Source: Amphiscolops sp. MND2022 (lineage: Eukaryota). From it: a stretch of DNA of 64,000 nt. This document shows positions 1,036 through 52,039 of this stretch, piece by piece. Numbering within the stretch: the first letter of the stretch is position 1; each line of letters opens with the position of its first letter. The DNA is taken from positions 48,052,001 to 48,116,000 of the forward strand of contig OZ076409.1 of the NCBI GenBank assembly GCA_964187785.1. Direction: 5' to 3'. Under the pieces are notes generated by a model. That model had not been told where the DNA came from. It did not search any database and was given only the letters and a program-made list of their open reading frames with translations. The position numbers were made by a program, and so were the translations under genes.

Positions 1036-1671
1036 TCAATTTTTTAACAACCCTTTTAATTTTCCGCCCATATTCCATATGGGAATGTCATGAACGTTAC
1101 CGATGGACGGTCTACCTAATCGGTATCCATCATGTTGTTCATTTCTACAGTCAGCTTTAGCGTTTGGAATTCGCTTTTCCTCGGCATTTGCTTCCGCTCT
1201 CTCAACTGGGACTTCCCATCCCCTTCTGGTCTCTCGGCCCGATCCGGCCATTATGACATTCTGTATCTGAGGCAATACTTGACTGCTGATAGCCTCATTA
1301 ATGGCCCTTTGGATCTGCGTCCCAACATTATTCATCATTTCATCCATCTCACGGGATATCCTAGAGTTCAATTCGCTAGACAACCTATTTATCTCAGCTA
1401 GTGAGTTTGCTTCAACTGAGTTTTGGCCAAAATCGGCACTTGTCCTAGGTTCATCATTTCTGCAATTAGAAAATAGGCTTTCGCCCTCGTTGTCCAAGTT
1501 ATTACTTATGACACTTTCTCTCCTCCCAACGGAGTTATTGTCTAAACTCCTTTCTCTTTCAGTTCCATTGTAACGATCGCCTCCTAACATTATGTCTAGA
1601 TTTTCGATATCAGAAAGGATCTCTAGTCCTCTGGACTTTCTAGTCTTCTTTTGTTTTCTTGTAGTAGGCAT
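1036..1671 (-). CDS. 3'-LTR copy of the Gag N-terminus (195 aa) fused to 16 codons of flanking host intron
   Basis: Nearly identical to the first 195 aa of gag 14152-15864; diverges exactly at the LTR boundary 1086. Confidence 0.7.
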   Translation of the reverse strand: MPTTRKQKKTRKSRGLEILSDIENLDIMLGGDRYNGTERERSLDNNSVGRRESVISNNLDNEGESLFSNCRNDEPRTSADFGQNSVEANSLAEINRLSSELNSRISREMDEMMNNVGTQIQRAINEAISSQVLPQIQNVIMAGSGRETRRGWEVPVERAEANAEEKRIPNAKADCRNEQHDGYRLGRPSIGNVHDIPIWNMGGKLKGLLKN

Positions 1672-2795
1672 AAGGAAACTTCGAGTATAAAATTAAATTA
1701 GATTATATCTCGAAAATAACAGTGAAACCGTTTGTACTAATATGATAGTCTTTTTCAGAAGAGAGCAAATAAGGAAGTGTCTCCTCTCTCAAAGGCACGG
1801 GTATTTATACCCCCGAAAGAGTGACACTCTCATTCCTTACATTCTTTGACTAAGACAATACCATATGACTGCATTTTTGATGGTCACAGGATGAACGCTA
1901 TCCATTTCAAATATTATACATCAAAGGGACAATCATTCAACCGTTAGCACCGTTTACATATTTGGCAAAATATTTTCATTGAACAGGTATTTGTTGATGT
2001 AGGTGCACATACTTTAGCACGTGACGGCACAACAAATATGTTTAGTCTAAATACCTTTCATGGGTACAATGACAAAAGGCCTGATAAGGCAATAATATCA
2101 AATTTCATGCAACAGCTATTTTAGAACAAAATTGGATAACTATCCGTTAATGGTACAACAAAACATCAATTAACACTTCAGATTAGTACTTCATGATCAA
2201 CTAAATATCATTATATGAAATTAGCATCAATCACAAGTGCTTTGTTTATGGCAGACTGAATAGTCGAATTAAGCCGTCTGCCTGAACGGCATTAATAGCA
2301 CTTTCATCCGGTTTGTACAAAGGCCGTAATCGGCAAAAGAGAATAAAGCACACGAAAATGAAGGCCTCTGATTGGCTAATTGAGTGAGCGCAAGTGACGC
2401 TAGCAAGAAAATACAGGAGTCCATTTGAACTCGTTTCCGTATTTTCTTTAAGTTGCTTACCATAATCTTTGATTATTATTACATCGCATTGACAATACAA
2501 CAGCACAACACAATCTATGTTAACAGACTAATATACACTTAACATTCAGGACTAAGGTCGATCATAAACAATCAATAAGTGCAATAATTCTAAGTTTTGG
2601 TGATAAGCGAATACGTCCCGGTACGGCCCTTTTGGCTTTTTCTAAAATAATACGGCAACAAAACACATGAGCAATGTAAAAGTTTAAGAGATAGTTTTAG
2701 TTTACTTTAATAGATAGGGAGAGTTCCTGGGGCCACATCCTGACCAACAGCCGTTGTTGTAATCCTTGTGCCGTCACAGGCGGCAGCCTGCGACA
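1086..2795 (-). repeat. 3' LTR of copy 1 (1710 bp)
   Basis: Matches 15279-16987 with about a dozen substitutions and one 1-bp indel (by eye); element-strand termini TGTCG...TGACA. Confidence 0.96.
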
Positions 2796-3477
2796 CAGCG
2801 GGTGTAATGAAAAGAAGACTGCCTGCATTAAGACCATTGATGTAGGCTTCTTTCCTGAGAGCTGTTATGTAAGCGGGTTCGCTCCTTGGAGTTGAGACTT
2901 CCATGTATTTGTTTATCTTTATGGATTTTATTTCATCCACAGATTTTCCACAAACCATACAGCTTGTGCTCCTTTGGGAGCTGATATCAGTGTAAGGCAA
3001 CGCATTTTGTATGTGGAAAGAAGCATGGAATCCGCTATTTTCGGGTTGTATCACCGGCGTATCCATAGACGGCCCTCTCTCATGAGCGGGGGGCGAAAGC
3101 GGTGACTCTAACACAGGCAGAATCGTCTTGCATAATTCTATCCTCCTCTTCGTGTTGCCTCAAGACGGAGCATAGCATAGTTTCTCGTCGAAGTAGGTTT
3201 TGTCCAACTTCGGTGTGGTTTGCACGTCTGAAGGCACAGAGCTAGGACCAGGTTCATCGCTTGCCGTCGTCATTCTTCTGCCGGCTATTGGAATTGGCTC
3301 AGCTCGGACTTGAGTTTCAATCCTCCTCACCATCTCTTCTGTGTCCGTAGACCAGTCTGAGTCCCATCCGTCAGAGGTTTCTTCATCACTGCTGATGTAG
3401 ATTACAGAGTCTCCCGATGAGTCAGAACTGAACTCCAAAGAACCAAAGAGTTTTCTCGCTTTATTAAATCTTTCCAT
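2707..3477 (-). CDS. Accessory ORF (~256 codons, one in-frame TGA at 3160-3162): acidic SIM-like motif, SPLSPP, CxxCGKS; C-terminus lies inside the 3' LTR
   Basis: ORFs 3160-3477 and 2707-3114 are in the same frame and joined by open codons GNTKRRIELCKTILP; homologues at 32570-33515 and 63532-64000. Confidence 0.8.
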
Positions 3478-4419: not shown

Positions 4420-4556
4420 ATTGAACTAGTTTAGCTTGATCAGGGCTAGACTATGTTCATATCAGCTTCCTGTTTCCAATAGCAAACACGTGATAACATG
4501 TTTCCGTTCAAATTTTCAAATCACTTCCGGAAGGTTTCTAACGCGGTAAATGGATT
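4420..4556 (+). promoter_or_regulatory. Putative internal promoter block upstream of the antisense gene, with a palindromic ETS-like ACTTCCGGAAG
   Basis: TTGAACTAG, AGCTTGATCAGGGCT, CTTCCTGT and ACTTCCGGAAG are conserved in order at 34448-34572 in the diverged copy 2. Confidence 0.6.
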
Positions 4557-7500
4557 TCTTTCAAGGAAGCTCACCGCCTACGTTCATCTCTTTCTGTTTA
4601 GAAAATCAGAATGAAGATGATCAACAAGTACCAGCCAACACCGAGGAAGGCATACCTGCTCAACTCAACCAAGTGTCGACCCAGATTGTCCTTTCAGAGA
4701 GTGCGCCAATCTCGGCCCTTTCTCCTCCTTCTTTCCACCCGACACGGAACTTATTCTCTCAGGTTCAGACTGCTGTTGATTCCCCTTTCAGCACTGACAG
4801 CAACGTAGATGTGACGGCCTATGCTACTGAAATGGTGCAACGAATGGAGGCGGCTCGAACAGCCTCAGAAGATATAACAAGTCAGGCTGCTACAGTATTC
4901 CCCAAGGCAACGGGAAATGCAGATGATTTAACCCCCAGTCCACCCACAGATCCTAGGAGGACCAGTACACCAAAATCTGGCAACCAACACCCAACTGAAT
5001 CTTCAAATCTGTCTCAGCTTGAAATGAATTTGAAGATTGTTGAGACCACAGAGACTGGGTTCCCTGAGTTACAGCCCACAACAAATGCTTTGAAGGAGAA
5101 TGCCGGGGCTTCCTTATTTCAGGCTGAGGAAGATTCCTCCTCGACCTTCAGCGGACCTCCTCCACTTCCTGGAAAACCGGCCCAATCAACCAGTTGTGGA
5201 AGTGACATTGATACTCCAGGGGAAATGTCTGGGCTGGACAACCTCCCTCCTCTCTATGGAGTTGTCCCAGGCTACTCTGAGCTCGAATCTGAAAAAGGTA
5301 CCGAAACGGAACTAGAAGAATGCCTCAACAACCAGCCTGGGACATCCAGAATGACCCTTGAAGAGCCATTGAGAGAACTATCAGGGCGCAGTCGGGCTAT
5401 CCTGAAGCAGTATTTTGAGGCGGAAAACGCATACACCTTCCCAGTGGGTCACAGAACTGTAGCTTTCACTGAGCCACAGATATACCATCTGTTGCGTGTT
5501 TTAACAGACGAGGCCATTAATATGACTTGCTCCACTATGGAAAGAATGGTCATCGGAGCCGTAAAGGGGACACCAGCCACTGCTCCTTCAAGGACAAAAC
5601 ATTTCCTAACCCGGACACGTGTCCAGACTCCCAAGCCTATGCAGTCAGGAAATTCAAGCTCCGAGGAAGCCATAACCGACCCCGGACAAGATTCAGAATC
5701 TCATGGAGATTTTAGTGCACTGTTTGAGGTAGGGGACATTTCTATGCCGGAAGACAGCGATAGTTCAGGTGAGATGGCTCTGATAGCTGACACTTTAAGA
5801 AAGTCGGCCTTCGATAGTGCCGGAATTGGCTAAAAGCCACACCTACACTCCAGTTCAGCAGTAGAAGGAATTGAGTCGACAGGTCACAGTAGTTTGGACG
5901 CCACGCTATCTGAACTGAGGGACCAACCCATGTCACAAAAATCATCATTGAAGAAGCCCTGCAAAAAGGTGGTTCGACCCAAAAGAGCTTCAAGGCGAGG
6001 GGTGCCCATGCGAGAGGAATTCTTCTCGAAAATCGGCTGGACACGATCGTTTATTTCAGGTCCAGCAGATCCACTGCACAACCCGCACATGGTTTGGTGC
6101 CACATGTGCAAAAAGAATTTCTCAATAAAGACAAAAGGAGTAGTCGAGATCCTGAGGCACCACATGACAGAAAGGCATCTGCGCCGGGACCAGCGTTGGC
6201 GCTATGAACATCTTAAGAGCGTGGACCCTGTCACAGGCAAAATTCATCATAGAGTTAGAGGTAGGAACGGGAAGATCCTCAGCAAGGCGGAACTAGCTCA
6301 AGAATTACCAAATTTCATCCACACTGAACTTATTGATGTAGGAGAAAGATTTCCGTTTTATGAGGACTATCTCAGAGGAAACACAGCTGCACTGGTAACT
6401 CCCCAATCCCGGGATAGGACCCAAATTCACCTCATCGGAGATTTCAACCAGAGACAGGGAGACATTGCTGTGCTCCGAAATTTGTGGTCACGAGTTGGGT
6501 CTTTCACTGAATACCAGGCTGCTTTCCGTGATTTCGATTGGAGTGAAGACAGAATAATGGTAAGCATATTTTGTTCGTCCTGACTCATTGTCGGTATACG
6601 CAGATACACTCATACTTATATATGTAAATATTTAGGCCTTGTGCGTGTATATAGGCGTTGGACTTACGGATAACATTTGTATTGCCCATTTTAGGCCATA
6701 TTCCAGCACATTTTCAATTGTGTCATGGAAGATATTGCCGAACATGTCACTTCTTCTCAACACTACTCCATTGAATTTGAAGACAGAGGGGCAAATCGAC
6801 TGATGTCCCTGCGCTTCTGGAAAGGAACAAAGCTGTGCAGAGTTTTTATTTGCCGAAGTGCACTACCCGCGTCTGAACTCTCAGGAGAATTTGGATCCTT
6901 GTCCCGGCTATTATCAGTAGTGTCGACCGGTCCGGATATGGTCGCTTGTTCAGGTTGTCCCGTGGACTTCATTCGGACTATTGATCACCACTCCTCCTAC
7001 TCTTACGGAATCCAAAGCTGCTTCCGCTTTGAATTGCTCGACCTGCAACTACTGATGCACAAATTCACCTACAGCGTGTTTGGGAGGATCGACATGTTCT
7101 CTGTACTCCAGTGTCTCTTAGTCTCCCTTGGGGGGTCTACCACCGAAGACTGGGTCCGAGGAACTCCCGAATTAACTTGTGTTAGTATCTCTTGTTTTAC
7201 TGCTGTAGGAGGATAGAAAGGTATGGGTGGCAGTCAAGGTATACGATCTGTCTCTTAAAATCATGCTTTATTTAGGCTATTACCACTTGCAAGCTGGAAG
7301 TGGACAGGCTCCCTGATTTGTGTCGAGATCTACTTAAGCGATGGAAGCAAATCCTCCGCTATCTTTCACTCCACTCCCGACTTCAAGAAAACCAAGGAGT
7401 ACACAACAAGGTCCAGAGCTTTGAGTGGTCCTTGATTTCCGATGACTTCTTCGCCGTCCGACTGGAGTTTTTTCAACGGCTCGTCAGTGACTGTAAGTAT

Positions 7501-8726
7501 ACAGCTCTCTTGAGTATTTCTGTCATATGTCCGGGCTTGAGTATTTTGGTTTTGTGTTTTCAGACGTCTCGAGTTTTGTCACCAACCTTGCACGCAGGCG
7601 GGATGCTACCTTCCATCTTTGCGGGGAGGTCTGCAGGTTCATAAGCCGACTCTGCTTCCGCGTATACCAGCCTGACACCGTCCCCCTTGAAAGCGCCTGG
7701 TTCCATCTCCTAGATTTCATGGTCAGCGACGGAAAGTTCTTGGAGGATGGCGAATTTCTCATAAGGCTCAACATGACGAATAAAGTTACTGCCTCAAGCA
7801 ACTTGAAAGCCGCTGGACTGCACTTCAATAAGAAGTCAAGTAAGGCAGCCATTGACAAAACGGCTGAGACGGCCAAAGCTGATTTCGCCAACAGTGCAAA
7901 GAAGTACATTGAGTACCTCCTGGGAGCTGTTCTGCAACATCCGGGTCTCAGTTCGGACCCCATTAAGGGATTAGCAGCCTTCGACCCTTATATCATGATG
8001 AAGAGACCAACCGAAGTGGCCCTTCGTCATTTTGGCATTTTATGTTCAACTTTCCAATTGCGCTCTTGGGTTACAGCAGCGAATGAGGCTCTATGCCGGG
8101 ACCAGTATCTAGCCTTACTGGACTATCTTCGGACAAACCATGGTTCTGGCCCTAGTCTTGCCTTAGAGTCGTTGGACCTAATAGACTTTCTCATGGGGCT
8201 TGAATTCCTCCAATCGAACGAGCTTATCTTCCATCTCTTCAAGTTATGTTGTTTGTGTCTTACGTCAGTCAGCCCTCAGTATCCAAGTGTGTTCATGGGA
8301 AATATAGATACTACTGATTTCCAGTCTCGAGTAGCGGACGTAATCCTGCCCTGTCAGAGCTATCTGTCTGAGGTCACCGATTCCTTAGCTCTCTGTTGTA
8401 CAGAGGCCAGTCTTGACAAGTTCTACCTCCTTTCTGCTTCATTTGGCCAGTCTGGGTTCTCTGCCGATTACGATCCTTGGACTTATGTGGATACCTTCGG
8501 CCGCTCAGTTATTTACAAGTCTCTCGTTTCTTCTCATCGTTCTGTTTCCTCGGGGACGGAAGTACGTTCTAAATGTGCAGTGGCAGCCGATACTTCCTCC
8601 GTCAAAGATGTGCCAGCTGTCCAATTGCCTAGTGACCGTAAACGAAGGCGAATGGATAAAAGCCAATCCCGTTCGAGGTCCTCCTCTGTAGTGATGGAAC
8701 CCACAACTAGCAGCTCTAAATCTTAA
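4550..8726 (+). CDS. Antisense 4-exon gene (~1291 codons): disordered N-terminus, BED-type zinc finger, degenerate hAT-transposase-like body; one in-frame TAA at 5831-5833
   Basis: Exons 4550-6559, 6695-7180, 7276-7492 and 7564-8726. Donors GTAAGC/GTTAGT/GTAAGT and acceptors TTTTAG/TTTAG/TTTCAG (phases 0,0,1) join the listed ORFs in frame. CHMC-x17-HHMTERH finger at 6098-6178. Confidence 0.85.
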
Positions 8727-8966: not shown

Positions 8967-11900
8967 CTAGTATCTGAAGTCTTCTGAGTAGTTTGGGTTG
9001 GGGTTAGGCCTGAGATTATATTTCCCTCCTCTAGGGCTCAGACTTTCATTTCTAGCATCATTCTCCGATATTTCGGGCACGATAATATCATCCCCCCTAT
9101 TTGGAGAGATGTTTGCATCATTTTCATTCAACGAATTTCTCTCTGAAAAAATTTCATCATTTTTCGGTCCACTTGCCGTACTCGGTAAAGATTTTTCTTG
9201 GTTTTTCGGGGAAACGGCCGGATTCGGCCAATCAGATTTGTTATTTTCTGTCACTGCAGTAGCTTCATTTCTTTTAGTGACGTCATCATCTAAGCGTTCA
9301 TTCCGGTTGTGTGCCGCGTTGTCGTTGTTTAATTCTTCTCGCGTGATTATGTAATCCGCTTCATTCTCGTCTACGTCATTTGTATTCGTTTCTGCCGCGT
9401 TCGGCTGTTCGGCATTCGGTAAGCTAGTCGGAATAGGCGCACTGCCTCGTGTGATTAGCTGCTCGCCAAAGTCGGTTTCCCACGTTATGATATATAAATC
9501 ATCTTGCGGAATGATAATTTCTTCGTCTGGCTGCAACTGTTGTTCTCGGAAATTGTCCTCAAGCGGTTGATTAGGGACAAACCTTTTAAGGCGAATGCGA
9601 TGTAAAATTTGAGTTTTGTTCGTATTAATTCGTCGCACTATATAATTTTCATTTGGCAAGACTTTTTGGACTACGAATGGTCCAACCCAACGGTAATCAC
9701 GGAATGGGATTTTTGCTCCTTGATTGTCCGCTTTCGGCTGTAAGACAAAACAGTATTCTTTCTCCTTTAATGGAGCGGCTTTTGCTTTGCGGTCGTAATA
9801 TTCTTTGTACTTGATATACGACTGCATTATGTTCTGCTTCGTTTTGTCAATCAAGATTTTTGTCCGATTTTGGATCTCTTCAGCAAATTCGGTTGTGGGA
9901 TTGATCTGCTCGTTTGGATTATTTCCAAGCTTGTGATCCAGAATATTGTGAGGAATTCTGCCATGGAATACCCTTGTTGGCTCACAACCGATGCTGGCAT
10001 GATAACTGGTATTATAATTAAGTACTGCTAATGGCAAGTATTTGTGCCATTGTCGGCGGTATTCCCCACATGCCATTTTGAGATTTGTCTTTAATGAGGC
10101 ATGGGTCCGCTCTAATTTGCCAATTGTTTGCGGATGCTTTGTTGTTGCACATTTGAGTGTGATGCCCAAAATCTGCGTAACCTCCGCAATAATCGTAGAA
10201 GTGAATGCAGTACCCTTATCAGTAATAAGAGTTGTTGGTAGATATGCATGCTTGGTCATTATGTCAATGAGCGCTTTTGCCACATTGATTGCTGATGCGT
10301 CCGTAAGAGGGTAAGCGAACAAATATCTGGAGAAAACATCAATTGCTGTTAGATCGTTTTCATACCCTCCACTTGGGGGAAGATTCGGCAATAGGTCAAT
10401 TTGCATGGCGTCTTCAGGTCCAAGGTCCCATTCGGGCAAATTGAGCAGCTCAGGTGTGATCGTTGCGTTATGGACTCTTTTGTCTCTGGCACATTGTTCG
10501 CACCCTTCTACCCACTTTTTGACGTGTTTAGCCATGCTAGGGTAGTAATACCTCTGTCTAATTTACTGCAACATTTTGGAAATCCCGGGATGTTTATGCG
10601 CTGTTCCGTGAAGGGACTGAAGCAATTCCCGAAGTAGGTGTTGCGGGAGCAAAATTTGATGGTATTTAACATTCCCTGTTTCATCAAAATATTGCCTCGT
10701 CAGGATTTCGTCCTTGAGTACAATTCGTTCCAGATTATTTGCATAGTGTCTATATCGGGTATCCTGTTGCAGTATGTTTTCTGAATAGTCTTCATGAAGG
10801 AGCTTTGCCTTCAATTGTTGCAATACTGCATCTTTGGACTGCTCGATGATTATCTGGTTTGTTTTCTTGAATCGGACTTGAATGTCTGGTTGTTGTTTGA
10901 CCAGATTGGTTGACAGAGTTTGTATGGTAACAGTGGGCTCATCAGTCATTGGATTTTTCCTGATTGTTTCTTTTCTTGCCCAATACTGTTCCTCTGTCTC
11001 GTCGTCATCATTCGTATAGAATATTTGTTCTTCCTGTGATACCCCCGCAGATTGGACATTTATCTCAATGGGTAGAGTTTGCACGTCCTCACGGATTTTC
11101 ATGATTAATTTATCCTTCGGATCTGCCTCCAATCGGGACAAATAGTCAGCTGCTGTGTTCTGTGCCCCCGGGATATGCGCTATGACAAAATTGAACTGAA
11201 TCACATAATCACATGCATTCCACAGGGCTGGGGGTATTATTTTCGTTTGAAAAAATCTCGTCACAGCTTTGTTGTCTGTGAGGATAATGACCGGTTTGGG
11301 CGCACCCCAGAATATATGCCCAAATTCTTTGAATGCAAAATAAATTGCAAGAAACTCTTTGGCATATATTGACATCTTGATTTGGGCTGGGGTGAAGGTT
11401 TTTGAGCCATATGCCACGGGTGCATAGGATTTTCGGAGAGATGTGAATTTCTGGTTCGGATCGTCTTCTATTAAGACCGCATATCCAGCTGCACCAAAAC
11501 TTGCGTCAGTCATTAGTGCTATCTGTTTGTTCGGGATAGGTTGTTGTAGGGCCAAGTCGCAACATTTGTCTAGCGCCCTATTGATTTCTTCGAATTGTTG
11601 GACTAATTCTTTCGATACTAGGACTTTTTCGTCACTTTTGAGCATCTTGTAGAATGGAGCAAGGCGTTCGGAGAGTCTTGGGACATAATTCCTGTAATAG
11701 TTTAGGAATCCCAAATAGCGCTGTAAAGCCTTTTTCGACTTTGGGAATTTGGTCTTTTCCAGAAAGTTTTGCACGTTCTGTTTCTGAGGTTTGACGCCTT
11801 GTGGGGTAATAGTCCGTCCGAGAAAATCAATTTCTTTTGCACCGAAGTGACATTTGTGCATTGTCAACTTAAGGCCTGCTTCCTGAATGCATTTGAACGT

Positions 11901-14161
11901 GGCTCTCAGGTTCGTCATGAGGTGATAAACATCATTGGCTGCGATGCCGATATCGTCCACATACTGGGCACACTGATCCGCTTTAATGACTTTGTCGAGG
12001 TATTCTCTCATGAAACTCGAGAATGCGGATAGTGACCGACTAAGGCCTTGTGCCAAGCGTCTGTAAGCGAATGTGCGACTGGCAAAATTGAAAGCCAACA
12101 TTTCGATTGAACGTTGGTCAGCCATTGGTAGGCAGTGGTATGCCTGCGAACAGTCTAATTTACAGAACAGTTTTTTGCCTGCCAAGTGTTGGGCAGCATC
12201 AACTAGTGTACTGACGGGATGATTGTTGTTGATATAATCATCTGAGATGAGGTTGTTGATTTTTCTCAAGTCAACCAAGAGTCGGAGTTTCCCGTTCGGT
12301 TTCTTCTGTGCAAATATTGGGCTCGCATATTTCGAGAACGGTAGGGTGGTGATGATGCCATATTTGTGTAACATGGCTAATTCGACTAGGATGTCCTCCT
12401 TCAGATTGATAGGAGCTGGAAGGCTTTGACTATAGGCTGGGGAATCGTCCTTAGGTGTCAGTTTCACTTTGAATTCCTCGTTCATGCCTATATCAAATCG
12501 GTGTCGTGCAAAGATGTCATGGAATTCCACTAGCAAGTCCTCAATTTTCTCCTTCTCTTCAGGAGTAAGGGTGGAATCTTTCCAGTCAAAGTTTTCTAAG
12601 AATTTTGCACGCGATTCTGCATCTGTGGTGGGGTCGAGTGTCTCCAGGTCCTGTAAGGCCTGTAACTCGCGTAGGATTCGTTTTTGTATAGGTGTGTGTT
12701 CCTCAGGATTTCCAGGGTTTTCTGGAGTTGGGAACCAATAATTTTCGGAGTTTTGTGGATTTCTATTGGTTTTGATGAGACTGCTGACATAATGGGCTGC
12801 TTGCTCCTGGTCATTCTGCAAAAGGTGCCAGGTTGATGCCGGATCTACCGGTTTGACATACTTCATCTGTTCTGGCGTCATGACAGAAAAATTGGCAATA
12901 TGTAGTCCCTTTTTGAGTTTATAAGGGTGGTCTGTGAAATTGTTCACTGGTATCAATATATTGCCATCATTCAGAGTGACCAAAGCTGGGCAAAATGTGA
13001 TGTCGCCTTCCTCATGTAGGAGGTCGCTCGGTTGCAAAAATCCAGTGACAGCATTCTCAGGGTAGAGTAGGGAATTGGTCCTAATTAGGACTTTGTCATT
13101 TGGTGGAATTGTTATCTCAATAGGGTTGAGAATTGGTTCTAATACATTTGAATACTTATGGTCAGCCGTTTTAAGCTGCATTGAAAAGAACGGGAAATTC
13201 AGTATCCCTTGTCTCATGTCCAGCACTGTATGGTTTCTTTGAAGGAACATTAGTCCAATGATCGGTCCTGTCAAAAGATTTCATGGAACTCAATGTCACC
13301 AACTTCGAATTTGAGCTCTATGGTACTCTTAGGAGTTTCCAGTTGCCCATTAGCGACCATGATTTGGAAGTTCGGAGGGGGACCTTCTCGGATAACAGAT
13401 TGTGGAGATAGAAGGCGGATTTTCCGGAGGTCCATTTCAGGGATTGCACTGGAGAGTGCTCCGGTGTCTATTAATCCATCAATGGTCAATTCCCCAAAGT
13501 CCATTGGGAAATAAAGCATGCGTTTTTTGCATTTGAGGTCGATGTTGGTTGACAGGGGTATACAGTCTGGTTCACCTTCTCTGGTGATAAGTACGTTCTG
13601 GAATTGTTTTTCGTCTAGCAATGATTGTGGCGTGGTTTCACCACTGTTTTCAGGATTCTCGGTCCCCAGTGGGTTTGGGAACACTGGGTGGTTTGTACCA
13701 TCATTCATTTGCCAGTTTTCAATTAGCGCTCGTGTTTTCTTGTTATGGGTAATTGGAGGATTCTCGTGGACTGTTCTGTTGTAATGGTCAATATCGTCCA
13801 GGACATATTGAAATTGCAGTGAATGTTGGTTGTAAAGCTCGGTGTCCCAATAGGGATCTCTGCCGTAGTCTGGATCGATGTATGTTGGATTGTAATCATC
13901 GATTAGGGGAATAGGCCTGAACCGGGTAGTAAAGGTGGTGGTGTAATCAGGGTCCCAAACAGGAATTGGTTTCTGGAATAAATGGGTGTTATTGTAGGTG
14001 ATGATGGTAGCTTTTTCCATCTGCTGCTGCCAGACAACAGAGGGGTAGCCCATCAATTGCTGATTGTATTGGTGGAAGGTTTGCGTTGGGGGGTCCGATC
14101 TGATGTATTGTCGGACAGATATCAGTTCGTTGTATTGGAGTCGTGGCGAAATTAGTTTTTT
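8967..14161 (-). pseudogene. pol: pol polyprotein: protease (DTGA), dUTPase-like spacer, RT (YVDD), RNase H (TDAS), integrase (HHCC, DDE, GPF) with acidic tail
   Basis: Motifs seen in ORFs 13271-14056, 10563-13274 and 8967-10535. Broken by a short frameshifting deletion near 13274 (copy 2 retains IVMEKLTGP) and a TAA at 10563-10565. Confidence 0.95.
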
Positions 14162-15864
14162 GACTCATCATTAGAAGATGAGGATTGTGAGTTTGAAGAT
14201 GTTGACTTGTTTTGCGGTTTCTGCGCTTTTGAATTGGGCTTACCGTCATTGGCATCATCTGGTCTGGTGCGTTTGGGTTTGAGATGTGCACCAGCGCCTT
14301 GCCAGCATCTTTCTTCCGGGTGGTTCTTTTTACCACAAGTGCCACACTCCGGATACGTCTTTTTCTGAGTCTGTTTGCCTTGTTGGGCATCTTTTTCCTT
14401 TTTCTTCTTCAATTTTTCACAGTCTTTGACCATATGGCCCTTCTCCTTGCAATAGTTGCAAGTGATGTCCGACATTTGCCCAGTAGTTAGAGGAGTCTTG
14501 GATTTTGTTGTCGAGGAGGTCATTGTGGCCATTGGTAGGTCGTCTGATTCCTCTAGGGCATTTAGTTCTAACTCTCTCTCTAAATGAGCAACTATTTCGT
14601 CATAAGAGCCATTTTCGAGTCTGGCCATGTTTATAGACCGCTTCAGTTTTGGTGGCAGTTTTGCGTAGAGCAAACTGTCAATCATTTTTTGCGCGTGATC
14701 CCCGAATGCTTTTTCTGCCCCTTGATTTAATTCTTCAAGGAAATCTGGCAGTTTCATCGTGTTGGGATCAAAGACCAGACGGTGCCATTTATGTTTGGCA
14801 GTCGCTTGTGATTCGGGCTTGACGTATTTTCGTCTGAATATGACCAATACGTCCTCTAAAGTCTGTCTATTACTCGAGCTGATGTTCCGGAAGGTTTGGA
14901 GAGCATTCTTCCTCAGCAATGAGTGGAAGTGATTTATTTTCATCTGTTCCGTCATTTCCGGTTGCATCTTGATCATCGTATGGAACAGGTCCTCAAACAG
15001 TTCGAATTTTTCACTCTTGCCGTCAAAAGTCATTGTGTTGGAATTGACTGGGCGTATAGTGAGTTGTTGGGCTGTCGGCCTATTCTGCATCGTTGTCAAG
15101 ACATCTGCCAGTCGAGTAATAGGGTCGGTTTGAGCAGCCGGAGCATTTCTCTCTTGCGCTGGGATCGTCGTGTCAAGGTTGATGTCCTCATAGGACCTGT
15201 CGAGATGGTTTCTGGATGAGACTCGTCCCGTGAGAAACTCGGGAACTTGAAGTGGAGATTCGTTGTCTCCTGTCACCATGTCATGAACGTTACCGATGGA
15301 CGGTCTACCTAATCGGTATCCATCATGTTGTTCATTTCTACAGTCAGCTTTAGCGTTTGGAATTCGCTGTTCCTCGGCATTTGCTTCCGCTCTCTCAACT
15401 GGGACTTCCCATCCCCTTCTGGTCTCTCGGCCCGATCCGGCCATTATGACATTCTGTATCTGAGGCAATACTTGACTGCTGATAGCCTCATTAATGGCCC
15501 TTTGGATCTGCGTCCCAACATTATTCATCATTTCATCCATCTCACGGGATATCCTAGAGTTCAATTCGCTAGACAACCTATTTATCTCAGCTAGTGAGTT
15601 TGCTTCAACTGAGTTTTGGCCAAAATCGGCACTTGTCCTAGGTTCATCATTTCTGCAATTAGAAAATAGGCTTTCGCCCTCGTTGTCCAAGTTATTACTT
15701 ATGACACTTTCTCTCCTCCCAACGGAGTTATTGTCTAAACTCCTTTCTCCTTCAGTTCCATTGTAACGATCGCCTCCTAACATTATGTCTAGATTTTCGA
15801 TATCAGAAAGGATCTCTAGTCCTCTGGACTTTCTAGTCTTCTTTTGTTTTCTTGTAGTAGGCAT
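14152..15864 (-). CDS. gag: Gag, 570 aa, with two CCHC zinc knuckles; first 195 codons lie inside the 5' LTR
   Basis: CNYCKEKGHMVKDC and CGTCGKKNHPEERC knuckles; ORF directly precedes pol. Confidence 0.93.
   Translation of the reverse strand: MPTTRKQKKTRKSRGLEILSDIENLDIMLGGDRYNGTEGERSLDNNSVGRRESVISNNLDNEGESLFSNCRNDEPRTSADFGQNSVEANSLAEINRLSSELNSRISREMDEMMNNVGTQIQRAINEAISSQVLPQIQNVIMAGSGRETRRGWEVPVERAEANAEEQRIPNAKADCRNEQHDGYRLGRPSIGNVHDMVTGDNESPLQVPEFLTGRVSSRNHLDRSYEDINLDTTIPAQERNAPAAQTDPITRLADVLTTMQNRPTAQQLTIRPVNSNTMTFDGKSEKFELFEDLFHTMIKMQPEMTEQMKINHFHSLLRKNALQTFRNISSSNRQTLEDVLVIFRRKYVKPESQATAKHKWHRLVFDPNTMKLPDFLEELNQGAEKAFGDHAQKMIDSLLYAKLPPKLKRSINMARLENGSYDEIVAHLERELELNALEESDDLPMATMTSSTTKSKTPLTTGQMSDITCNYCKEKGHMVKDCEKLKKKKEKDAQQGKQTQKKTYPECGTCGKKNHPEERCWQGAGAHLKPKRTRPDDANDGKPNSKAQKPQNKSTSSNSQSSSSNDESKN
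14155..14161 (-). other. -1 ribosomal frameshift slippery site A AAA AAC at the gag stop
   Basis: The -1 frame (KLISPRLQYNELISVRQYIRSDPP...) is open into the protease ORF; AAAAAAC-TAA is conserved in copy 2 at 45471-45480. Confidence 0.85.
15267..15278 (-). other. Primer-binding site TGGTGACAGGAG (tRNA-Leu-like)
   Basis: Immediately follows the LTR-terminal CA; identical 12-mer in copy 2 (45941-45952); resembles the tRNA-Leu PBS TGGTGTCAGGAG. Confidence 0.8.
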
Positions 15865-16987
15865 AAGGAAACTTCGAGTATAAAATTAAATTAGATTATA
15901 TCTCGAAAATAACAGTGAAACCGTTTGTACTAATATGATAGTCTTTTTCAGAAGAGAGCAAATTAAGAAGTGTCTCCTCTCTCAAAGGCACGGGTATTTA
16001 TACCCCCGAAAGAGTGACACTCTCATTCCTTACATTCTTTGACTAAGACAATATCATATGACTGCATTTTTGATGGTCACAGGATGAACGCTATCCATTT
16101 CAAATATTATACATCAAAGGGACAATCTTTCAACCGTTAGCACCGTTTACATATTTGGCAAAATATTTTCATTGAACAGGTATTTGTTGATGTAGGTGCA
16201 CATACTTTAGCACGTGACGGCACAACAAATATGTTTAGTCTAAATACCTTTCATGGGTACAATGACAAAAGGCCTGATAAGGCAATAATATCAAATTTCA
16301 TGCAACAGCTATTTTAGAACAAAATTGGATAACTATCCGTTAATGGTACAACAAAACATCAATTAACACTTCAGATTAGTACTTCATGATCAACTAAATA
16401 TCATTATATGAAATTAGCATCAATCACAAGTGCTTTGTTTATGGCAGACTGAATAGTCGAATTAAGTCGTCTGCCTGAACGGCATTAATAGCACTTCATC
16501 CGGTTTGTACAAAGGCCGTAATCGGCAAAAGAGAATAAAGCACACGAAAATGAAGGCCTCTGATTGGCTAATTGAGTGAGCGCAAGTGACGCTAGCAAGA
16601 AAATACAGGAGTCCATTTGATCTCGTTTCCGTATTTTCTTTAAGTTGCTTACCATAATCTTTGATTATTATTACATCGCATTGATAATACAACAGCACAA
16701 CACAATCTATGTTAACAGACTAATATACACTTAACATTCAGGACTAAGGTCGATCATAAATAATCAATAAGTGCAATAATTCTAAGTTTTGGTGATAAGG
16801 GAATACGTCCCGGTACGGCCCTTTTGGCTTTTTCTAAAATAATACGGCAACAAAACACATGAGCAATGTAAAAGTTTAAGAGAAAGTTTTAGTTTACTTT
16901 AATAGATAGGGAGAGTTCCTGGGGCCACATCCTGACCAACAGCCGTTGTTGTAATCCTTGTGCCGTCACAGGCGGCAGCCTGCGACA
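15279..16987 (-). repeat. 5' LTR of copy 1 (1709 bp)
   Basis: Direct repeat of 1086-2795; followed by the PBS on the element strand. Confidence 0.96.
15995..16002 (-). promoter_or_regulatory. Candidate LTR TATA box TATAAATA (also at 1802-1809)
   Basis: About 130 nt upstream of the gag ATG and flanked by GC-rich bases. Confidence 0.5.
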
Positions 16988-17089
16988 GGGAACGAAAAAT
17001 ATTTAAATCAAACGGTGTTTTTTAAGTAAAATTTGGCATGTTTAAATTTAAGAGAGTCACCCAGAGAATTCAACTCACATAAATTTTTT

Positions 17090-17770
17090 TATCAGACATC
17101 GTGGATTAGAGTGTTGGAATCGTTCAACAAGGCAAAAATTCATTGTCAAGTAGGCTCTTCCGAAGCGATAATTGCTGTTTTCTAAACGAAACTCTTCGCA
17201 TATTGAAACTGAGAATGACAAAAAATCTAAAATTTCCCAATTTTCAAAGTTTCCATGCAATTTTTGTCAAATTTTTGACAGACTTCGTGGATTGGAATCT
17301 TGAAAACCGTCAAAAAAAGGAAGAGTTGGTTGTCCAGTAGGCTTCTCTGGAGAGATAATTGCAGTTTTCGAAATGAAAATATCTCAAATTGACAACAAAA
17401 ATCACAAAAAAACCCTATTTTTTCCAATTTTCAAAGTTTTCATGCCATTTTTGTCAAATTTTTGACATTTGACAGACTCAGTGAATTGAATGTTGAAAAG
17501 AGTCAACAAGGAACACGATTGTTATCCACTAGGCTTAATGAAGAGAGAGATGCAGACTGTTTTTAGTCGGCGCGTTTTCCTTTTGAGGAAAAATGCCCGA
17601 CTATAGCAGTAACCTTTCTTTCAGACCATATCACTCACACTGATCGGTCCACGTCGTGAATTAGAATGTTGGAACAGTTAAACAAGAGAAGAATTCATTG
17701 TTCCAGTAGGCTTTTTTTACGAGATAAGTACAGTTTTTAGTTTGAAAAATGCCTCAAATTGATCGAAAAG
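17090..17770. repeat. Degenerate ~185-bp tandem array (about 4 units)
   Basis: Recurrent GAC-TCGTGGATT-GAAT-TTG...CAACAAG...AGTAGGCT...GAGATAA near 17095, 17281, 17474 and 17655. Confidence 0.6.
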
Positions 17771-18590: not shown

Positions 18591-21539
18591 TCAATAAGTT
18601 CCGAGCAAAACCACCAGGTATGGAGTACGCCTCACAAGAAAAATGTATTTGCAGTTTCCCACATGAAGGAGAAAACCTGAGAATGACACAAAATCAGAGA
18701 GAATTCAACGGTTTTTTGGTTTTTCGTAAGTTCTTCATGCGTTCCGTGGGTTAGAAGGGTGTTCATTTTAATTCAACAACAACAAAACTCAGTTTGCAAT
18801 AGGTTTTCAGGAAGAGACATCTGTAGTTTCAGGTTGGAAAAGTTCTCACATTGACTAACAAAGTTGGTCGGAAATACCATCTTTTACAGTTTTTCTCACT
18901 TCTGGTGTCTTTATGTGCAACTATAACACGAGCCGTTTCTTGAACTTGCAAAGGACACCAATTTCAAACGTTCTCCCTCTTCTCAGTGTCAAAATTTACC
19001 CCAATAAATACGCTTGAGACTCGGAAACCTCTTTTTAGTCGGTGCTTTTCGTAGAAAACGCAGGCAATAGCAGTGACTTTTCTTTTTTTTAGTCGGCGCT
19101 TTTCGAAGAAAACGCAGACTAGAGCAGTGATTTTTTTAGGACCAACGAAGTGACAGATTTTAAGATCTTTAGAGGTTAATTGCACTAACACTAACTGCCA
19201 CACTACTTCTACTGGCACTTGAGATAGAGGTTAATTAGGCTTTGATATATATATTTTCGAAAGATCAAATGTGTGGAAAAAAGTACTGACAAAAAGTCGT
19301 AACTGTAGTCGCTCTTTCGTGAAGAAAACGGCTGACTGATATGGTATGTTTGCCGTGTTAGGCATTGATATCAACATAGTTCAACAACAGAACATTTAGA
19401 TACTTGGCGTGTTTATAAATAACAGGCCCCCTCCGGGGCACAATATTATTCCTCTTTTAGGTTTTCATATTCAAAAATTGAAGGATAGAATCGATTGAAT
19501 CTGGAATAACCATACGACCTTGTTAATTTATTATATAGCCCACCATAGTTCACTGTACCAGTTTACACGGCTTTTATTTCGTCTCGGACTAACGAAATTA
19601 TAACTACTAAGCGTAGACGAAGTTTCGCATTAGGATTTTCGAATGTATGCGCAGCTCTCGGCGAACGAATAATTTACACCCATTTGTTCTCATATCATGA
19701 ACTCGGTCTGCGAGTAATTAGCACTCATTAGCTTCATTCCATTAACTCGGCCTACGAATGCATAGAAATGAATCGTCGTCAGAACTGTCGAACCAAATAT
19801 CTAAATTTTCCAGTAGGTACTCGGATCGCGAACGGAAGTCGGTTGAAAAAAAGTTGCAACTTTCTAAATTCGATATTATTCCTGCTATTGCCGAAATAAT
19901 AGGTTAGGTGTTTCCTTTTAAAATGTGCTGAGATGAATTATAATCTTTCTTTTTTTCGAACTTTTTTGTATTTTCATAGAGAATTGTCTATTCTTGAACA
20001 TCAAATTTTTGTCGTTGTATAACAGTTTTGGGGGGGGGGTTGTTTTGGAAAATATCGCGCTGCTCAATAAGTTCCGAGCAAAACCACCAGGTATGGAGTA
20101 GGCCTCACAAGGAAAATGTATTTGCAGTTTCCCACATGAAGGAGAAAACCTGAGAATGACACAAAATCAGAGAGAATTCAACGGTTTTTTGGTTTTTCGT
20201 AAGTTCTTCATGCTTTCCGTGGGTTAGAAGGGTGTTCATTTTAATTCAACAACAACAAAACTCAGTTTGCAATAGGTTTTCAAGAAGAGACATCTATAGT
20301 TTCAGGTTGGAAAAGTTTCTCACATTGACAACAAAGTTGGTCGGAAATACCATCTTTTACAGTTTTTCTCACTTCTGGTGTCTTTATGTGCAACTATAAC
20401 ACGAGCCGTTTCTTGAACTTGCAAAGGACACCAATTTCAAACGTTCTCCCTCTTCTCAGTGTCAAAATTTACCCCAATAAATACGCTTGAGACTCGGAAA
20501 CCTCTTTTTAGTCGGTGCTTTTTGTAGAAAACGCAGGCAATAGCAGTGACTTTTCTTTTTTTTAGTCGGCGCTTTTCGTAGAAAACGCAGACTAGAGCAG
20601 TGATTTTTTTAAGACCAACGAAGTGACAGATTTTATGATCTTTAGAGGTTAATTGCACTAACACTAACTGCCACACTACTTCTACTGGCACTTGAGATAG
20701 AGGTTAATTAGGCTTTGATATAAATATTTTCGAAAGATCAAATGTGTGGAAAAAAGTACTGACAAAAAGTCGTAACTGTAGTCGCTCTTTCGTGAAGAAA
20801 ACGGCTGACTGATATGGTATGTTTGGTGTGTTAGGCATTGATATCAACATAGTTCAACAACAGAACATTTAGATACTTAGCGTGTTTATAAATAACAGGC
20901 CCCCTCCGGGGCACAATATTATTACTCTTTTAGGTTTTCATATTCAAAAATTGAAGGATAGAATCGATTGAATCTGGAATAACCATACGACCTTGTTAAT
21001 TTATTATATAGCCCACCATAGTTCACTGTACCAGTTTACACGGCTTTTATTTCGTCTCGGACTAACGAAATTATAACTACTAAGCGTAGACGAAGTTTCG
21101 CATTAGGATTTTCGAATGTATGCGCAGCTCTCGGCGAACGAATAATTTACACCCATTTGTTCTCATATCATGAACTCGGTCTGCGAGTAATTAGCACTCA
21201 TTAGCTTCATTCCATTAACTCGGCCTACGAATGCATAGAAATGAATCGTCGTCAGAACTGTCGAACCAAATATCTAAATTTTCCAGTAGGTACTCGGATC
21301 GCGAACGGAAGTCGGTTGAAAAAAAGTTGCAACTTTCTAAATTCGATATTATTCCTGCTATTGCCGAAATAAAAGGTTAGGTGTTTCCTTTTAAAATGTG
21401 CTGAGATGAATTATAATCTTTCTTTTTTTCGAACTTTTTTGTATTTTCATAGAGAATTGTCTATTCTTGAACATCAAATTTTTGTCGTTGTATAACAGCT
21501 TGGGGGGGGGGGGTGGGTTGGAAAATATCTCGCTGCTCA
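18591..21539. repeat. Recent tandem duplication, 2 x ~1473 bp
   Basis: 18591-20063 is nearly identical to 20064-21539; TCA microhomology at the junction. Confidence 0.95.
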
Positions 21540-31150: not shown

Positions 31151-32640
31151 TGTAAGGACTACGGTTATCTGTGTATCTCAGATCACATGCAGATTTGGAG
31201 TCCTTTCCTTCTTTGCTATTCTAGTTTTCAACCAAGTTGTCCTTCCTCTCTTCTCCTGACTATTAGGGGACGAGCTAGCCTCAGTGTCCCTATTTCCTGA
31301 TGATGACATTGAACTCAGGATAGTACATATTTCTGGAATGACTCTATCGGATATAGCTGAAATTGTGGCCCTGTTAATCTGAGCATGTACCATAGACATC
31401 ATGAAATCCATTTCTTGAGAAAGTCTCAAGTTGACTTCATTGATGAAAATTTCTCATGATACCAAAATACCCTCATGTCTATGAACATTGTTTTCAAAAT
31501 TTTGGCGCCGGAATTCAATTGTTAGGGGAAAATCTTCCCTTGGAGGTAAAGAAACTCAGTGTCGCTTTGAACAGATGATTCCCCGATTGCACTAGCTAGT
31601 TCTCTCTCAATTGGATTGATGTTGTCACTTCCCACCATTATGTCTAGTTATCAAAGTCAGACATCATGTACATCTCTCTAGATCTCCTAGCTTTTGCTTT
31701 TGTCACCTCGTAGAAGGCAAAAGAAATGGCTACAAGGAAAGAAGCAATTCGAGTCTTTCTTTTATGAAACAAAATTGCTATCGACTGTATAACTGAACAA
31801 TGGATAGATTCAACGAATTGTGTCGGGACTCAAGGTCCCAGGTATTATCATATACATTCTTGCATGACTAGCAACTTTACTGAAGTCCTAATCTTAAAAT
31901 AGCCTGAAGGGCTTTCTGAAAGTAGCAGTGACTATTTTTTAGAATCAATGACGTCATGTTTATAGGTTGACGTCAAAGCAACTGCACGCCGACACAGAAG
32001 ATTAAAGGACTTGGAGGCATACCTAATATACATATATCCCTTAAGGACAAGCAACTATACAAACGAATAACACTTCATAGAATTTTGCATGTAATTATTT
32101 AATACATGAAAAATAGTATGTGACTATCAAGCTTCTGCAGTTTTTAACACAACTCCTGTATTAGCCATGTCATCTGGTATATATAGCCTACGGTTTAACT
32201 ATAGTGTGATATTTAATAAACAGCGCCTTTAATATAAATTGGGACTGGACTTGTCTTGAGTACCACGCTTGCTAAGATGAATGGCCTTACTTGGCCTTTA
32301 ATTCAATAAAGTTCAGCATTAATAAATGAACGCCTCTGATTGGCTAAAACATGAATTAGACGTGTTGTCCGCGGCGACAGGCAAGGAAACATTTGAACAC
32401 GTTTCCTTTGCATGTACGCCTTGGTGTCCAATTATCTTTACATACAACAGTGATAAAATACCACCACATTCAACTTACATGTACTTTCGAAACATTGAAT
32501 TGATATCAATAAAATTTCAGATTCAAAGTTTGCAGTTTGATTTTGGACAGCATGTCCGATTTCCTTAATCTAGCGGAGGGTGGTATAGTGATTGCATGAG
32601 ATGGAAGACCAGTTCTCAACGCTTGCGGCAGCCTGTGACA
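31151..32640 (-). repeat. 3' LTR of copy 2 (1490 bp)
   Basis: TGTAAGG...TGTGACA on the plus strand, matching 45953 onward; PPT-like AGGGGGAG next to it on the element strand (32641-32648). Confidence 0.85.
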
Positions 32641-37500: not shown

Positions 37501-38147
37501 AGGCTGGGTGTCCAATTCTCCAGACGCAGAGTCCGGGGACGAGTATCTAGAATTCTTCGACCAGTTTCGCAAGGCCTACGAGGATCTTCGAGATTCCCCA
37601 GAGGTCTTCACTGATATGATTTCGTTACTCACGCCCATGCCAGAACTGAGGAAGCGCAAGCATTTGTTCCATATCTTCAGTTGAGTTGCTTGTGTCTGAC
37701 GTCCAATGTGCCCAACTTGCCTCCTGTCACATTGCAGGGGTTGATAGGAGCTATCCTCGATGTCGGTTGACTGACGTAATCATACCTGCACAGTCTTACC
37801 TTACCAATGTTGCTGCTACAGTCACCTGTATGCACCGCTGAGGCCTGTTTAGACCAGTCCCGAGAACTCGAGTCTAGCTTCAGTAGCGGCAATGTCGCAG
37901 GCAATCCTTGGTCCGATGTGGACAGTTTCGGTAAAGCTAGCTTCGGGAAGGCACTGGATTGTCCGTCCACGAAACATTGAAGGCTAAACCTCCTCGAGTT
38001 GTCCGTTCTGTGACCTCCTCTGTTTCGAGTACCGAAGGGCGGCAGAGTAAACGATTGCCTGGGAAGAGTAAGAAAGGGGAAGTTTGGAGCCACTGCTTCC
38101 TCCGATATAACTGGAACTGTCGAGGATCCGCTCCAATGCTCGTCTAA
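34560..38147 (+). pseudogene. Antisense BED-finger/hAT-like gene homologue in copy 2 (frameshifted)
   Basis: MKEAYFKGIKWTKTFVTGPLDP...VYCQICKTN...RHYQAESHLRKDQR aligns with copy 1; introns at about 36024-36099, 36585-36658 and 36877-37008 are in equivalent positions. Confidence 0.85.
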
Positions 38148-45480: not shown

Positions 45481-46517
45481 GTATCGGGCTTCTTTGAGTT
45501 TGATTGGCCTGAAGTGGATGTTTCAGCGTTATTGGCGTTATTGGATGTTGCTTCATCGCTTGAGGCTTCATTGGCTTTATTGTCGGGTCGGGTCCGTTTA
45601 GGAAGTAAATGAGCGCCCGCTCCCTGTCAGCATCTTTTTGTTGGGTGATTCTTTTTCCTACAGGTTTCACATTGTGGTTATGTTTGACGCTGCGGTTGCT
45701 GGCCACTTTTCTCCTCCATTTCTCTCTTCTTTTTCAATTTCGGACAGTTTTTCCAGAAGTGCCAGTAGCTTTACAATAAAAGCATTGGGCACCCTTGTTC
45801 ATTATTCCCCTGTACGGAAAACTTTCGTAAACGTTTTTCACCATTTGCATAGAAATCAGAGGGTGGAGTTGCGGTCACTGGTTGACGTTAAGCCTATAGT
45901 GGCCATTGGAATTCAGGAATTTGCCGTTGGGTGTCGGTAGCTCCTGTCACCATGTAAGGACTACGGTTTTCTCTGACTCTCAGATCATATGCAGACTTAG
46001 AGTCCTTCTTTGCTATTCCAGTTTCAGCCCAGTTGTCTTTTCCCTATTCTCATGACTATTAGAGCACTAGCTAGCCTCAGTGTCCCTATTTCCTGATGAT
46101 GACATTGAACTCACGATATAACATATTTTTGGAATGACTCTATCTAATATAGCTGAAATTGTGGCTTTGTTAAACTGAGCATGTACCATAGACATCATGA
46201 ATTCCATTTCTTGAGAAAGTCTCAGGTTAACTTCATTGGTGAAAGTTTCTCATGATACCAAAATACCCTCAAGTTTATGAACATTGTTTTCAAAATTTTA
46301 GCTTCGGAATTCAATTGTTAGGGGAAAATCTTCCCTTGGAGGTAAATAAACTCATTGTCGCTTTGAACAGATGATTCCACAATTGCACTAGCTAGTTCTC
46401 TCTCAATTGGATTGATGTTTTCACCTCCCACCATTACGTCTAGGTTATCATAGTCAAACATCAAGTCCATCTCTCTAGATCGCCTAGCTTTTGCTTTTGT
46501 CTCCTCGTAGAAGGCAT
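45471..46517 (-). pseudogene. gag: Gag remnant of copy 2 with the central region deleted
   Basis: ATG (MPSTRRQK) inside the LTR; zinc-knuckle remnants start only ~160 bp after the PBS, versus ~800 bp in copy 1. Confidence 0.75.
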
Positions 46518-47170
46518 AAAAATGGTTACAAGGGAAGAAGCAATTTAAGCCTTCATCTTGTGAAACAAAACTGGTATCAGCTGTTTAGCTGGACAATGGA
46601 TAGTTTCAACGAATTTTGTCGGGACTCAAGGTCCCCGGTATTATCATATACATTCTTGCATGACTAGCAACTTTACTGAAGTCCTAATCTTAAAACAGCC
46701 TGAAGGGCTTTCTGAAAGTAGCAGTGACTATTTTTTAGAAACAATGACGTCATGTTTATAGGTTGACGTCAAAGCAACTGCAGGCCGACACAGAAGATTA
46801 AAGGACTTGGAGGCATACCTAATATACATATATCCCTTAAGGACAAGCAACAATACAAACGAAGAACACTTCATGGATTTTTACATGTAATCATATGTTA
46901 CATGAAAAATAGTATGTGACTATCAGGCTTCACCACTTTTCAACACAACTCCTTTATTAACCAAGTTTTCTGATATATAAAGGCTACCATTTAACTATAT
47001 TGTGACATTTAATAAGCAGCGCTTTTCTGGAAATTGGGACTCAGTGTCCAATTGTTTAGAGTGGCACGCTTGCTAAGATGAATGGCCGTACTCGGCCTTT
47101 AATTCAAAAAAGTACAGCATAATTAAAAGAATGCCTCTGACCGGCCAAATTGTGAATTGGACGCGCGACA
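45953..47170 (-). repeat. 5' LTR of copy 2 (shortened at its distal end)
   Basis: Similar to 31151-32380; similarity ends at ...GCGCGACA 47170. Confidence 0.8.
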
Positions 47171-51216: not shown

Positions 51217-52039
51217 AACCTTGAAGTGAATAGTTAAAACGTTTGAGTTGTTCGACCTTTTTGGTCAATCTGAGGTTCTTTTTCAGCATAAAACGGCACT
51301 CTTCTCACTTACACAAAGCGTACTTCATAGCTAGTTCGTTCGTGATTGGACTATGTGAGCATTTTAACCGACGAATTTCACTAAAATTGAACCAAGGTCA
51401 ACAGTTTGAATTTTCTAGATTATTTGAATATTTTGTGGCCATGCGTCAGATTACAGTTAGAAATGCGAAAAAGTGTCATTGATTGTTATAGTAACTACCA
51501 TATCCATAAATATTACCAACTTTAAACTGTACCGTTAGTTTTCACGGCTGCTTTTGACTGGAATTCAAGTCCTGTTCAAGCGTACAATCAAATTTTAGTC
51601 TTCTTTAGAGACTGAAACGCTATTGCATTCTGATGTTTCAATATTTTGCTTTCGGTAATCTCATTAGTTCTCTGAACGCGAAACGTCAACATGTCCATGA
51701 ATCCATGAACTTCAGCAGTTATCCCGTTTTTACCTTCTGGGACCATGTGTTCAATTTCTATGAAAATAGGTCCCATAGTCCTATAAAATATTTGATGTCG
51801 AACATCGAAAACATTGACTGTCAGTTAAAAGTTTGTCATTAGATTTTATTACGGAGAAAATTTGCGTTCAAATAGGGGTCAATTTATACGATTTTAGCTT
51901 GTTCCAAACGTGGATTTCTGCTATTGTTGGACATTATTATAAAAAATATTAGGGTAAAACACGTGGTCCAATTTTTCTGCCTGAAGTGTCAAAACAGTTG
52001 CACGGACAATCCTCTAAGTATTTATATTCATATAATATT

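Follow-up and report, generated by a model that had tools for sequence, protein, structure and literature searches.

The gag frame of a Ty3/gypsy-type retrotransposon from Amphiscolops sp. begins within the LTR and reads through the primer-binding site

Introduction

In Ty1 of Saccharomyces, a member of the Ty1/copia superfamily (Pseudoviridae) with a PR-IN-RT order, +1 frameshifting and tRNAiMet, gag starts inside the LTR, with an overlap of only about a dozen codons and no folded domain. Coding within an LTR is also familiar from the accessory genes nef of HIV, sag of MMTV and bel/tas of foamy viruses, which overlap U3 of the 3' LTR. An account of yeast elements (PMC4974528) places the primer-binding site (PBS) of Ty1 within the GAG ORF and has the 5' PBS segment of Ty3 adjoining the 5' UTR, while an account of Diaspora (PMC1142308) puts the start of gag 873 bp after the LTR. 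Two sources (PMC4974528; PMC4551931) describe p22 of Ty1 as the C-terminal part of Gag, made from an internally initiated mRNA, and downstream start sites are used by Tf2 (PMC5341516). Our searches of the open-licence literature brought up no account of a Gag domain of this length encoded by an LTR.

The window analyzed here, a 64-kb stretch of the genome of Amphiscolops sp. MND2022, harbors two related elements on its minus strand. Element 1 resembles Ty1 in that its PBS lies inside gag, but it belongs to another superfamily, has its integrase after rather than before the reverse transcriptase (RT), and shows an overlap of 195 codons with a predicted 60-residue helix as opposed to about a dozen codons in Ty1. 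With Ty3 and other Ty3/gypsy elements (Metaviridae) it shares a PR-RT-RH-IN order, CCHC knuckles, RT similarity and a 5-bp target-site duplication (TSD); unlike in Ty3 and Diaspora, its gag start codon precedes the end of the LTR by 586 nt. The copy-number-control factor p22/p18 of Ty1, a truncated protein with the potential to enter assemblies of full-length Gag, may serve as a model for a short isoform, whereas the truncated ORFs of the element 1 family are N-terminal and exist, at the DNA level, in 3' or solo LTRs. Protein coding in the LTR is common to this family and to HIV nef, MMTV sag and foamy bel/tas, and a third ORF of element 1 (ORF3) enters U3 in a similar way; those, however, are accessory U3 genes, as compared with a Gag start in the putative R/U5 here. 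In our judgment, the geometry is Ty1-like, but far longer and with an apparently folded domain.

Results

Element 1 comprises 15.9 kb on the minus strand (16987-1086), and its boundaries and internal genes are as follows.

15279..16987, minus strand: 5' LTR, 1709 bp, TG...CA, from self-BLAST and the junctions
1086..2795, minus strand: 3' LTR, 1710 bp, from self-BLAST and the junctions
16988..16992, minus strand: TSD TTCCC, left copy, from junction reading
1081..1085, minus strand: TSD TTCCC, right copy, from junction reading
15267..15278, minus strand: PBS, the same 12 nt in both elements, translated as M-V-T-G in frame with gag
8967..14164, minus strand: pol (PR-RT-RH-IN), split into three ORFs by one frame change and one in-frame stop
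14155..14161, minus strand: A AAA AAC heptamer where gag and pol overlap by 13 nt, putative site of -1 frameshifting
4550..8726, plus strand: antisense accessory gene, several ORF pieces (possibly exons) over about 4 kb, common to element 2
2707..3477, minus strand: ORF3, sense, one internal stop, entering the start of the 3' LTR for 29 codons

Given that the two LTRs differ at only 13 positions (99.2% identical), that they have TG...CA ends and that the 5-bp TTCCC flanks both sides, the ends of the element are firmly placed and it must have inserted recently. A local duplication in place of an LTR was ruled out by the TSD, the TG..CA ends and the phase tests described below (91/91 and 82/82). 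Two of the 13 differences fall in the coding part and both change an amino acid, a number that is uninformative (P=0.12). The PBS 12-mer starts with TGG and is identical in two diverged elements; its primer might, at a guess, be a Leu tRNA, and the 64-kb window contains no tRNA gene. Despite the youth of the insertion, there is no purine run as a polypurine tract beside the 3' LTR of element 1 (2796-2835, minus strand), while an 8-nt purine run precedes the 3' LTR of element 2.

The pol matches in Pfam appear in the order PR-RT-RH-IN, with the protease below the curated cut-off, and this order excludes copia but not BEL/Pao. Top-ranked matches of the RT were foamy virus, Ty3 and caulimovirus-type chains (E 1e-30 to 1e-23; Ty3 RT E=2e-26). 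Based on domain order and similarity, element 1 is classified as Ty3/gypsy-type, with its RT placed by similarity alone. Like that of element 1, with its A AAA AAC heptamer (14155-14161), the gag of several relatives terminates in K-N. The antisense gene (4550-8726 in element 1 and 35467-37938 in element 2, plus strand) carries a Cys/His motif and shows 35-51% identity between the elements in the longer matches; it matched no Pfam family and gave ESM Atlas scores of at most 0.87, and its presence in element 2 rules out a nested insertion. ORF3 has a CxxC motif, 26-36% identity between the elements and internal stops in each copy; in each element (2707-3477 and about 33431-32570, minus strand) it runs over the beginning of the 3' LTR in the same phase, V-S-Q-A-A-A, so that both LTR ends are coding.

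Examination of gag and the 5' LTR yielded the following features.

14152..15864, minus strand: gag ORF, 570 aa, two CCHC knuckles, DUF1759 and zf-CCHC matches below threshold
15279..15864, minus strand: LTR-encoded part of gag, codons 1-195 and the first base of codon 196
15277..15279, minus strand: junction ATG (Met196), made of the last LTR base and the first two PBS bases
1036..1671, minus strand: 3' LTR ORF, 211 aa, Gag aa 1-195 followed by 16 residues from flanking DNA
15997..16002, minus strand: TATAAA, unique within the LTR, 138 nt ahead of the gag start codon and no other ATG intervening, candidate promoter

A preliminary description of this DNA, made from its sequence, had placed the gag ATG about 585 nt inside the LTR and had gag translated straight through the LTR end and PBS. 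Both points are borne out: the ATG at 15864 lies 586 nt from the LTR end, at LTR position 1124, and the frame crosses the junction as H-D-M-V-T-G, the A of Met196 being the last LTR base. The first third of Gag is thus written within the LTR. Over LTR nt 1124-1709 the gag frame has 0 stops as compared with 29 and 13 in the other two frames and 22-24 per frame in the upstream LTR, and an open frame of any phase was obtained in 0 of 20000 shuffles of this stretch; the open frame exceeds chance. Downstream, Gag contains two CX2CX4HX4C knuckles in its sequence (zf-CCHC E=0.003, under the cut-off). Being the first ATG after the sole TATAAA of the LTR, 15864 fits a transcription start upstream of it. 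AATAAA is absent from the LTR (15279-16987), and the sole ATTAAA, at LTR position 85, precedes the TATA box.

To have a measure of coding constraint, we relied on homologs of Gag, 2728 of which were retrieved at E<=0.001 and the best 120 aligned; among the 121 aligned proteins (query included), 107 are at least 555 aa long and begin with MPTT. In the 69 homologs with less than 86% identity, conservation is distributed in blocks, reaching 90% in aa 1-30, 80% in aa 91-142 and 98% in the capsid-like core, with 37% in aa 31-90 and 41% in aa 143-195; the 48 homologs with at least 90% identity display the same pattern, and 3 sequences fall between these bins. The two blocks within the LTR correspond to the following.

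15775..15864, minus strand: conserved block 1, aa 1-30, a basic head (7 K/R in 14 aa) followed by an acidic/hydrophobic motif
15436..15618, minus strand: conserved block 2, long helix, aa 83-143, predicted parallel trimeric coiled coil of about 60 residues

For the LTR part of 26 sequences (the query and 25 multi-member clusters), the tree length amounts to about 732 amino-acid changes with 0 stops, as against about 36-43 stops expected in these sequences if neutral, an estimate that is inflated by recombination and by the homologs being predicted ORFs ranked by score and hence selected to be open. The LTR spacers have a mean p-distance of 51% vs. 13% for the linker after the PBS, and indels in the LTR part involve whole residues only (-6, +2, +3). 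All eight distant proteins checked carry 4-8 K/R in the first 15 residues and have 114-194 residues before the first xVTG; we surmise that the basic head of Gag may act in nuclear localisation or in RNA or membrane binding. The N-termini of four distant families (P0201, P0214, P0252 and P0230) did not align to P0001 above shuffles. With respect to further DNA loci of the family, none was found in the one candidate stretch from viral contigs or the 27 from genome contigs, and the single hit among 104 from metagenome contigs (L001) was an unrelated zinc-knuckle match. The block conservation, a depression of third-position identity, the helix model and the tree results together speak for coding constraint in the LTR segment, as the preliminary description had proposed.

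In the AlphaFold model of Gag, the helix of aa 83-143 is the most confident part (pLDDT 83-91 over aa 91-140 vs. a whole-model mean of 49.7), and its hydrophobic period is 3.8 residues. Prediction with three copies of aa 80-148 returned a score of 0.77 vs. 0.02 for the best control, with contact agreement between runs of at least 98% and partner pLDDT of at least 85, although a three-copy job lies outside our two-copy calibration and coiled coils may pass by likeness to known coils. In that calibration, 21 of 30 solved pairs from microbes and 17 of 29 from eukaryotes attained the pass mark, as compared with 0 of 23 and 0 of 30 single chains, respectively; of the eukaryotic pairs for which no older solved relative existed, only 1 of 7 passed. 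These models support, short of showing, that the LTR-coded helix oligomerises as a coil. Foldseek with the whole Gag model, which is otherwise helical with low confidence, found no match at E<=0.001; ESM Atlas gave only low scores (0.76) for aa 1-195, and a Pfam YpjP match on the helix (E=2e-4, below the cut-off) was dismissed as generic helix likeness.

Element 2, an older and decayed relative of element 1, spans about 47170-31151 on the minus strand with LTRs that are 88% alike, and provides a second instance of the junction in DNA.

45953..47170, minus strand: 5' LTR remnant in which the first ~260 nt were not found; the decayed start of gag (46517) lies 565 nt from the end of the LTR
45941..45952, minus strand: PBS, sequence and phase as in element 1
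31151..32640, minus strand: 3' LTR, 1490 bp, with a decayed coding part for the Gag N-terminus

The truncation of the 5' LTR rules out a TSD for this element; besides those first ~260 nt, most of gag from the PBS region up to the zinc knuckles is gone (45761-45953, minus strand). The LTR-coded protein had been described as conserved in this copy, on the basis of the peptides MPSTRRQK, which comes from its 5' LTR, and RLSQEMDFMM.., which comes from its 3' LTR. The LTR frames of element 2 are broken by frameshifts and stops, and its junction phase (Y-M-V-T-G) is that of element 1. Between element 1 and each element 2 LTR in turn, identity by codon position was 60/73/41% over 91 codons (P=2e-5) and 59/70/46% over 82 codons (P=0.004), in a protein-guided alignment that favors positions 1-2. 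Among the sense frames only the gag frame scores, and at the nucleotide level the scores were 66.5 and 60.5 from the ATG on and 42.5 and 46.5 upstream of it, with shuffle maxima of 34-37.5.

If the LTR stops at the first base of codon 196, any ORF leaving a 3' or solo LTR must continue with an A-first codon. There are 899 short homologs of the 3' LTR ORF (116-370 aa), and the best 120 of these 899 were examined: the alignment broke off early in 15, the D was missing in 2, 9 continue as D-M-V and 94 change after D, from which 3 (P0378, P0382 and P0446) were dropped as true Gag continuations. All 91 diverging ORFs carry I, M, T, N, K, S or R after D195, compared with a background of 188/421 at the next positions. 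Similarly, among the best 120 of 7568 short proteins of the P0214 family (63% identity in the core), 82/82 were A-first vs. a background of 177/406, the other rows being 32 continuing, 5 other and 1 early; a few rows have a common flank, so that the rows are not all independent. These results place the LTR end, without recourse to DNA, at the same phase in two families (195 and 126 LTR-coded residues), the phase also seen in the DNA of element 2, and all intact families that we examined have the LTR frame running on into Gag. At the protein level, the distant families P0188, P0214 and P0280 contain in-frame tandem H/D-M-V-T-G junction units in 2-4 copies, 12-14 aa apart, which possibly arose by duplication of the LTR end together with the PBS; the first such unit marks the LTR end in P0214.

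Some pairs of clusters are about 2% different internally and 50-60% in the LTR spacers. In P0021/P0052, for example, the spacers differ by 54% and the internal part by 1.9%, with the differences collapsing right after residue 195. Trees of the LTR-coded and internal parts of Gag each reject the other's topology (delta logL 659 and 207; AU test with 5000 replicates, fewer than advised, on fast trees). This incongruence, with its break at the junction, indicates that the LTR was swapped as a coding cassette, for which exchange at the PBS during reverse transcription would be the simplest reading. Since the phase is fixed, each such exchange stays in frame and brings in a new Gag N-terminus.

The preliminary description also surmised that the in-frame ATG at the junction could give a second, shorter Gag, a proposal that our data do not support. 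An LTR ending in CA that abuts a PBS starting with TGG always forms an ATG, and since both elements of the window have one of their three PBS frames closed by a W-stop, an in-frame ATG needs little luck. Met196 is kept in 119/120 homologs, no more than ordinary internal methionines (M259 117/120, M278 119/120, M448 119/120). Between the first ATG and Met196 there are 18 ATGs, 5 in frame and 13 out of frame, which makes leaky scanning to Met196 implausible, so that the short form would require its own transcript start or a splice. Met196 has G at -3 and +4, and Met1 a weak context with C at both positions. Representatives that start at the Met196 equivalent (P0206, P0216, P0250, P0316 and P0321) may be decayed copies or real short forms.

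Discussion

We propose, at a probability of about 0.85, that element 1 belongs to a Ty3/gypsy-type clade in which the first 110-195 residues of Gag are specified by the LTR, these being translated from it and exchanged as a cassette. Transcription would begin about 30 nt after the TATAAA at 16002, making 15864 the first AUG of the genomic RNA, and ribosomes would read a basic head, a variable spacer, an oligomerising helix of about 60 residues and a second spacer within R/U5, before continuing over the integrase end and the PBS (M-V-T-G) into capsid-like and nucleocapsid-like regions. The junction codon would be doubly fixed, by the CA of the LTR end and by the tRNA-complementary TGG, and for this reason the frame would survive exchange of LTRs between subfamilies by recombination; the N-terminus of Gag would then be re-assorted as a cassette, presumably through template switching.

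That Gag truly starts at Met196, with the LTR ORF untranslated and either open by accident or kept for a role as RNA or DNA, strikes us as highly improbable. Such an ORF could account for the fast divergence of the spacers relative to the post-PBS linker, and the region 15975-15200 does fold better than shuffles (z=-2.7, 20 shuffles), but neither the block-wise amino-acid conservation and third-position bias, nor the regular hydrophobic period and whole-residue indels, nor the basic head retained before the junction in distant families would be expected from it. We also see little prospect for the LTR ORF owing its retention chiefly to a stand-alone or spliced product, made from 3' or solo LTRs or as a first exon to ORF3, with read-through into Gag being secondary. 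The abundance of such ORFs (899 matching the 3' LTR ORF and 7568 the P0214 N-terminus) and the position of ORF3, which is far downstream and would require an RNA of its own, are in keeping with this scenario; on the other hand, the tails after the junction are arbitrary flank with no common stop, as a by-product would give, and the continuity of the LTR frame with Gag in all intact families argues for Gag as the product.

An unlikely, albeit less remote, scenario than either of these is that two Gag isoforms exist, with a 375-aa form made from Met196 via internally initiated or spliced RNA, by analogy with Ty1 p22. In its favor are the better start context of Met196 vs. Met1, the retention of Met196 even in distant families, and the precedents of p22 and the downstream starts of Tf2; nevertheless, the constraints on the LTR end and PBS fully explain that retention, the upstream ATGs stand in the way, no pyrimidine-rich acceptor is evident just upstream of Met196, where the stretch is hypervariable, and an RNA starting just upstream would place the PBS under the initiation site. 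To a similar degree we doubt that the fast change of the spacers reflects positive or relaxed selection in place instead of LTR exchange. Spacer distance does correlate with that of the conserved LTR blocks (Spearman 0.68) and of the post-PBS linker (0.57), in keeping with selection in place, but a change in rate by itself gives neither incompatible topologies nor a break at residue 195, and the two processes can coexist.

If an LTR-coded Gag start is correct, several consequences follow. Annotation tools and dating methods treat LTRs as non-coding regulatory DNA, whereas here roughly a third of its length codes, in several diverged families, for a domain of Gag that is conserved and apparently folded, in a family large enough to comprise thousands of protein clusters. 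Formation of a solo LTR would leave a promoter and an open gene rather than a dead scar, LTR exchange becomes protein-domain shuffling, and minus-strand strong-stop DNA would need to be about 700 nt long, primed from inside a translated region. As a speculation, improbable in our view, the LTR may be a self-contained exchangeable cassette of promoter, start codon and trimeric coil, such that LTR swaps would change the oligomerisation or targeting module of Gag; 3' and solo LTRs might then express coil-only proteins of about 200 aa which, by joining Gag in assembly, would restrain or redirect the family in the mirror image of Ty1 p22 and to an extent that scales with copy number, and donation of the coil to downstream host genes is conceivable as well.

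Elsewhere in the window, degenerate tandem repeats of about 190 bp (17086-17762) adjoin the insertion site of element 1, and a 1477-bp head-to-tail duplication with 98.4% identity occupies 18591-21539. In addition, long inverted repeat arms (52032-56153 vs. 58326-61088, 80-92% identity) surround a small tandem/inverted array at 57122-57454, and possibly represent a foldback or large DNA transposon.
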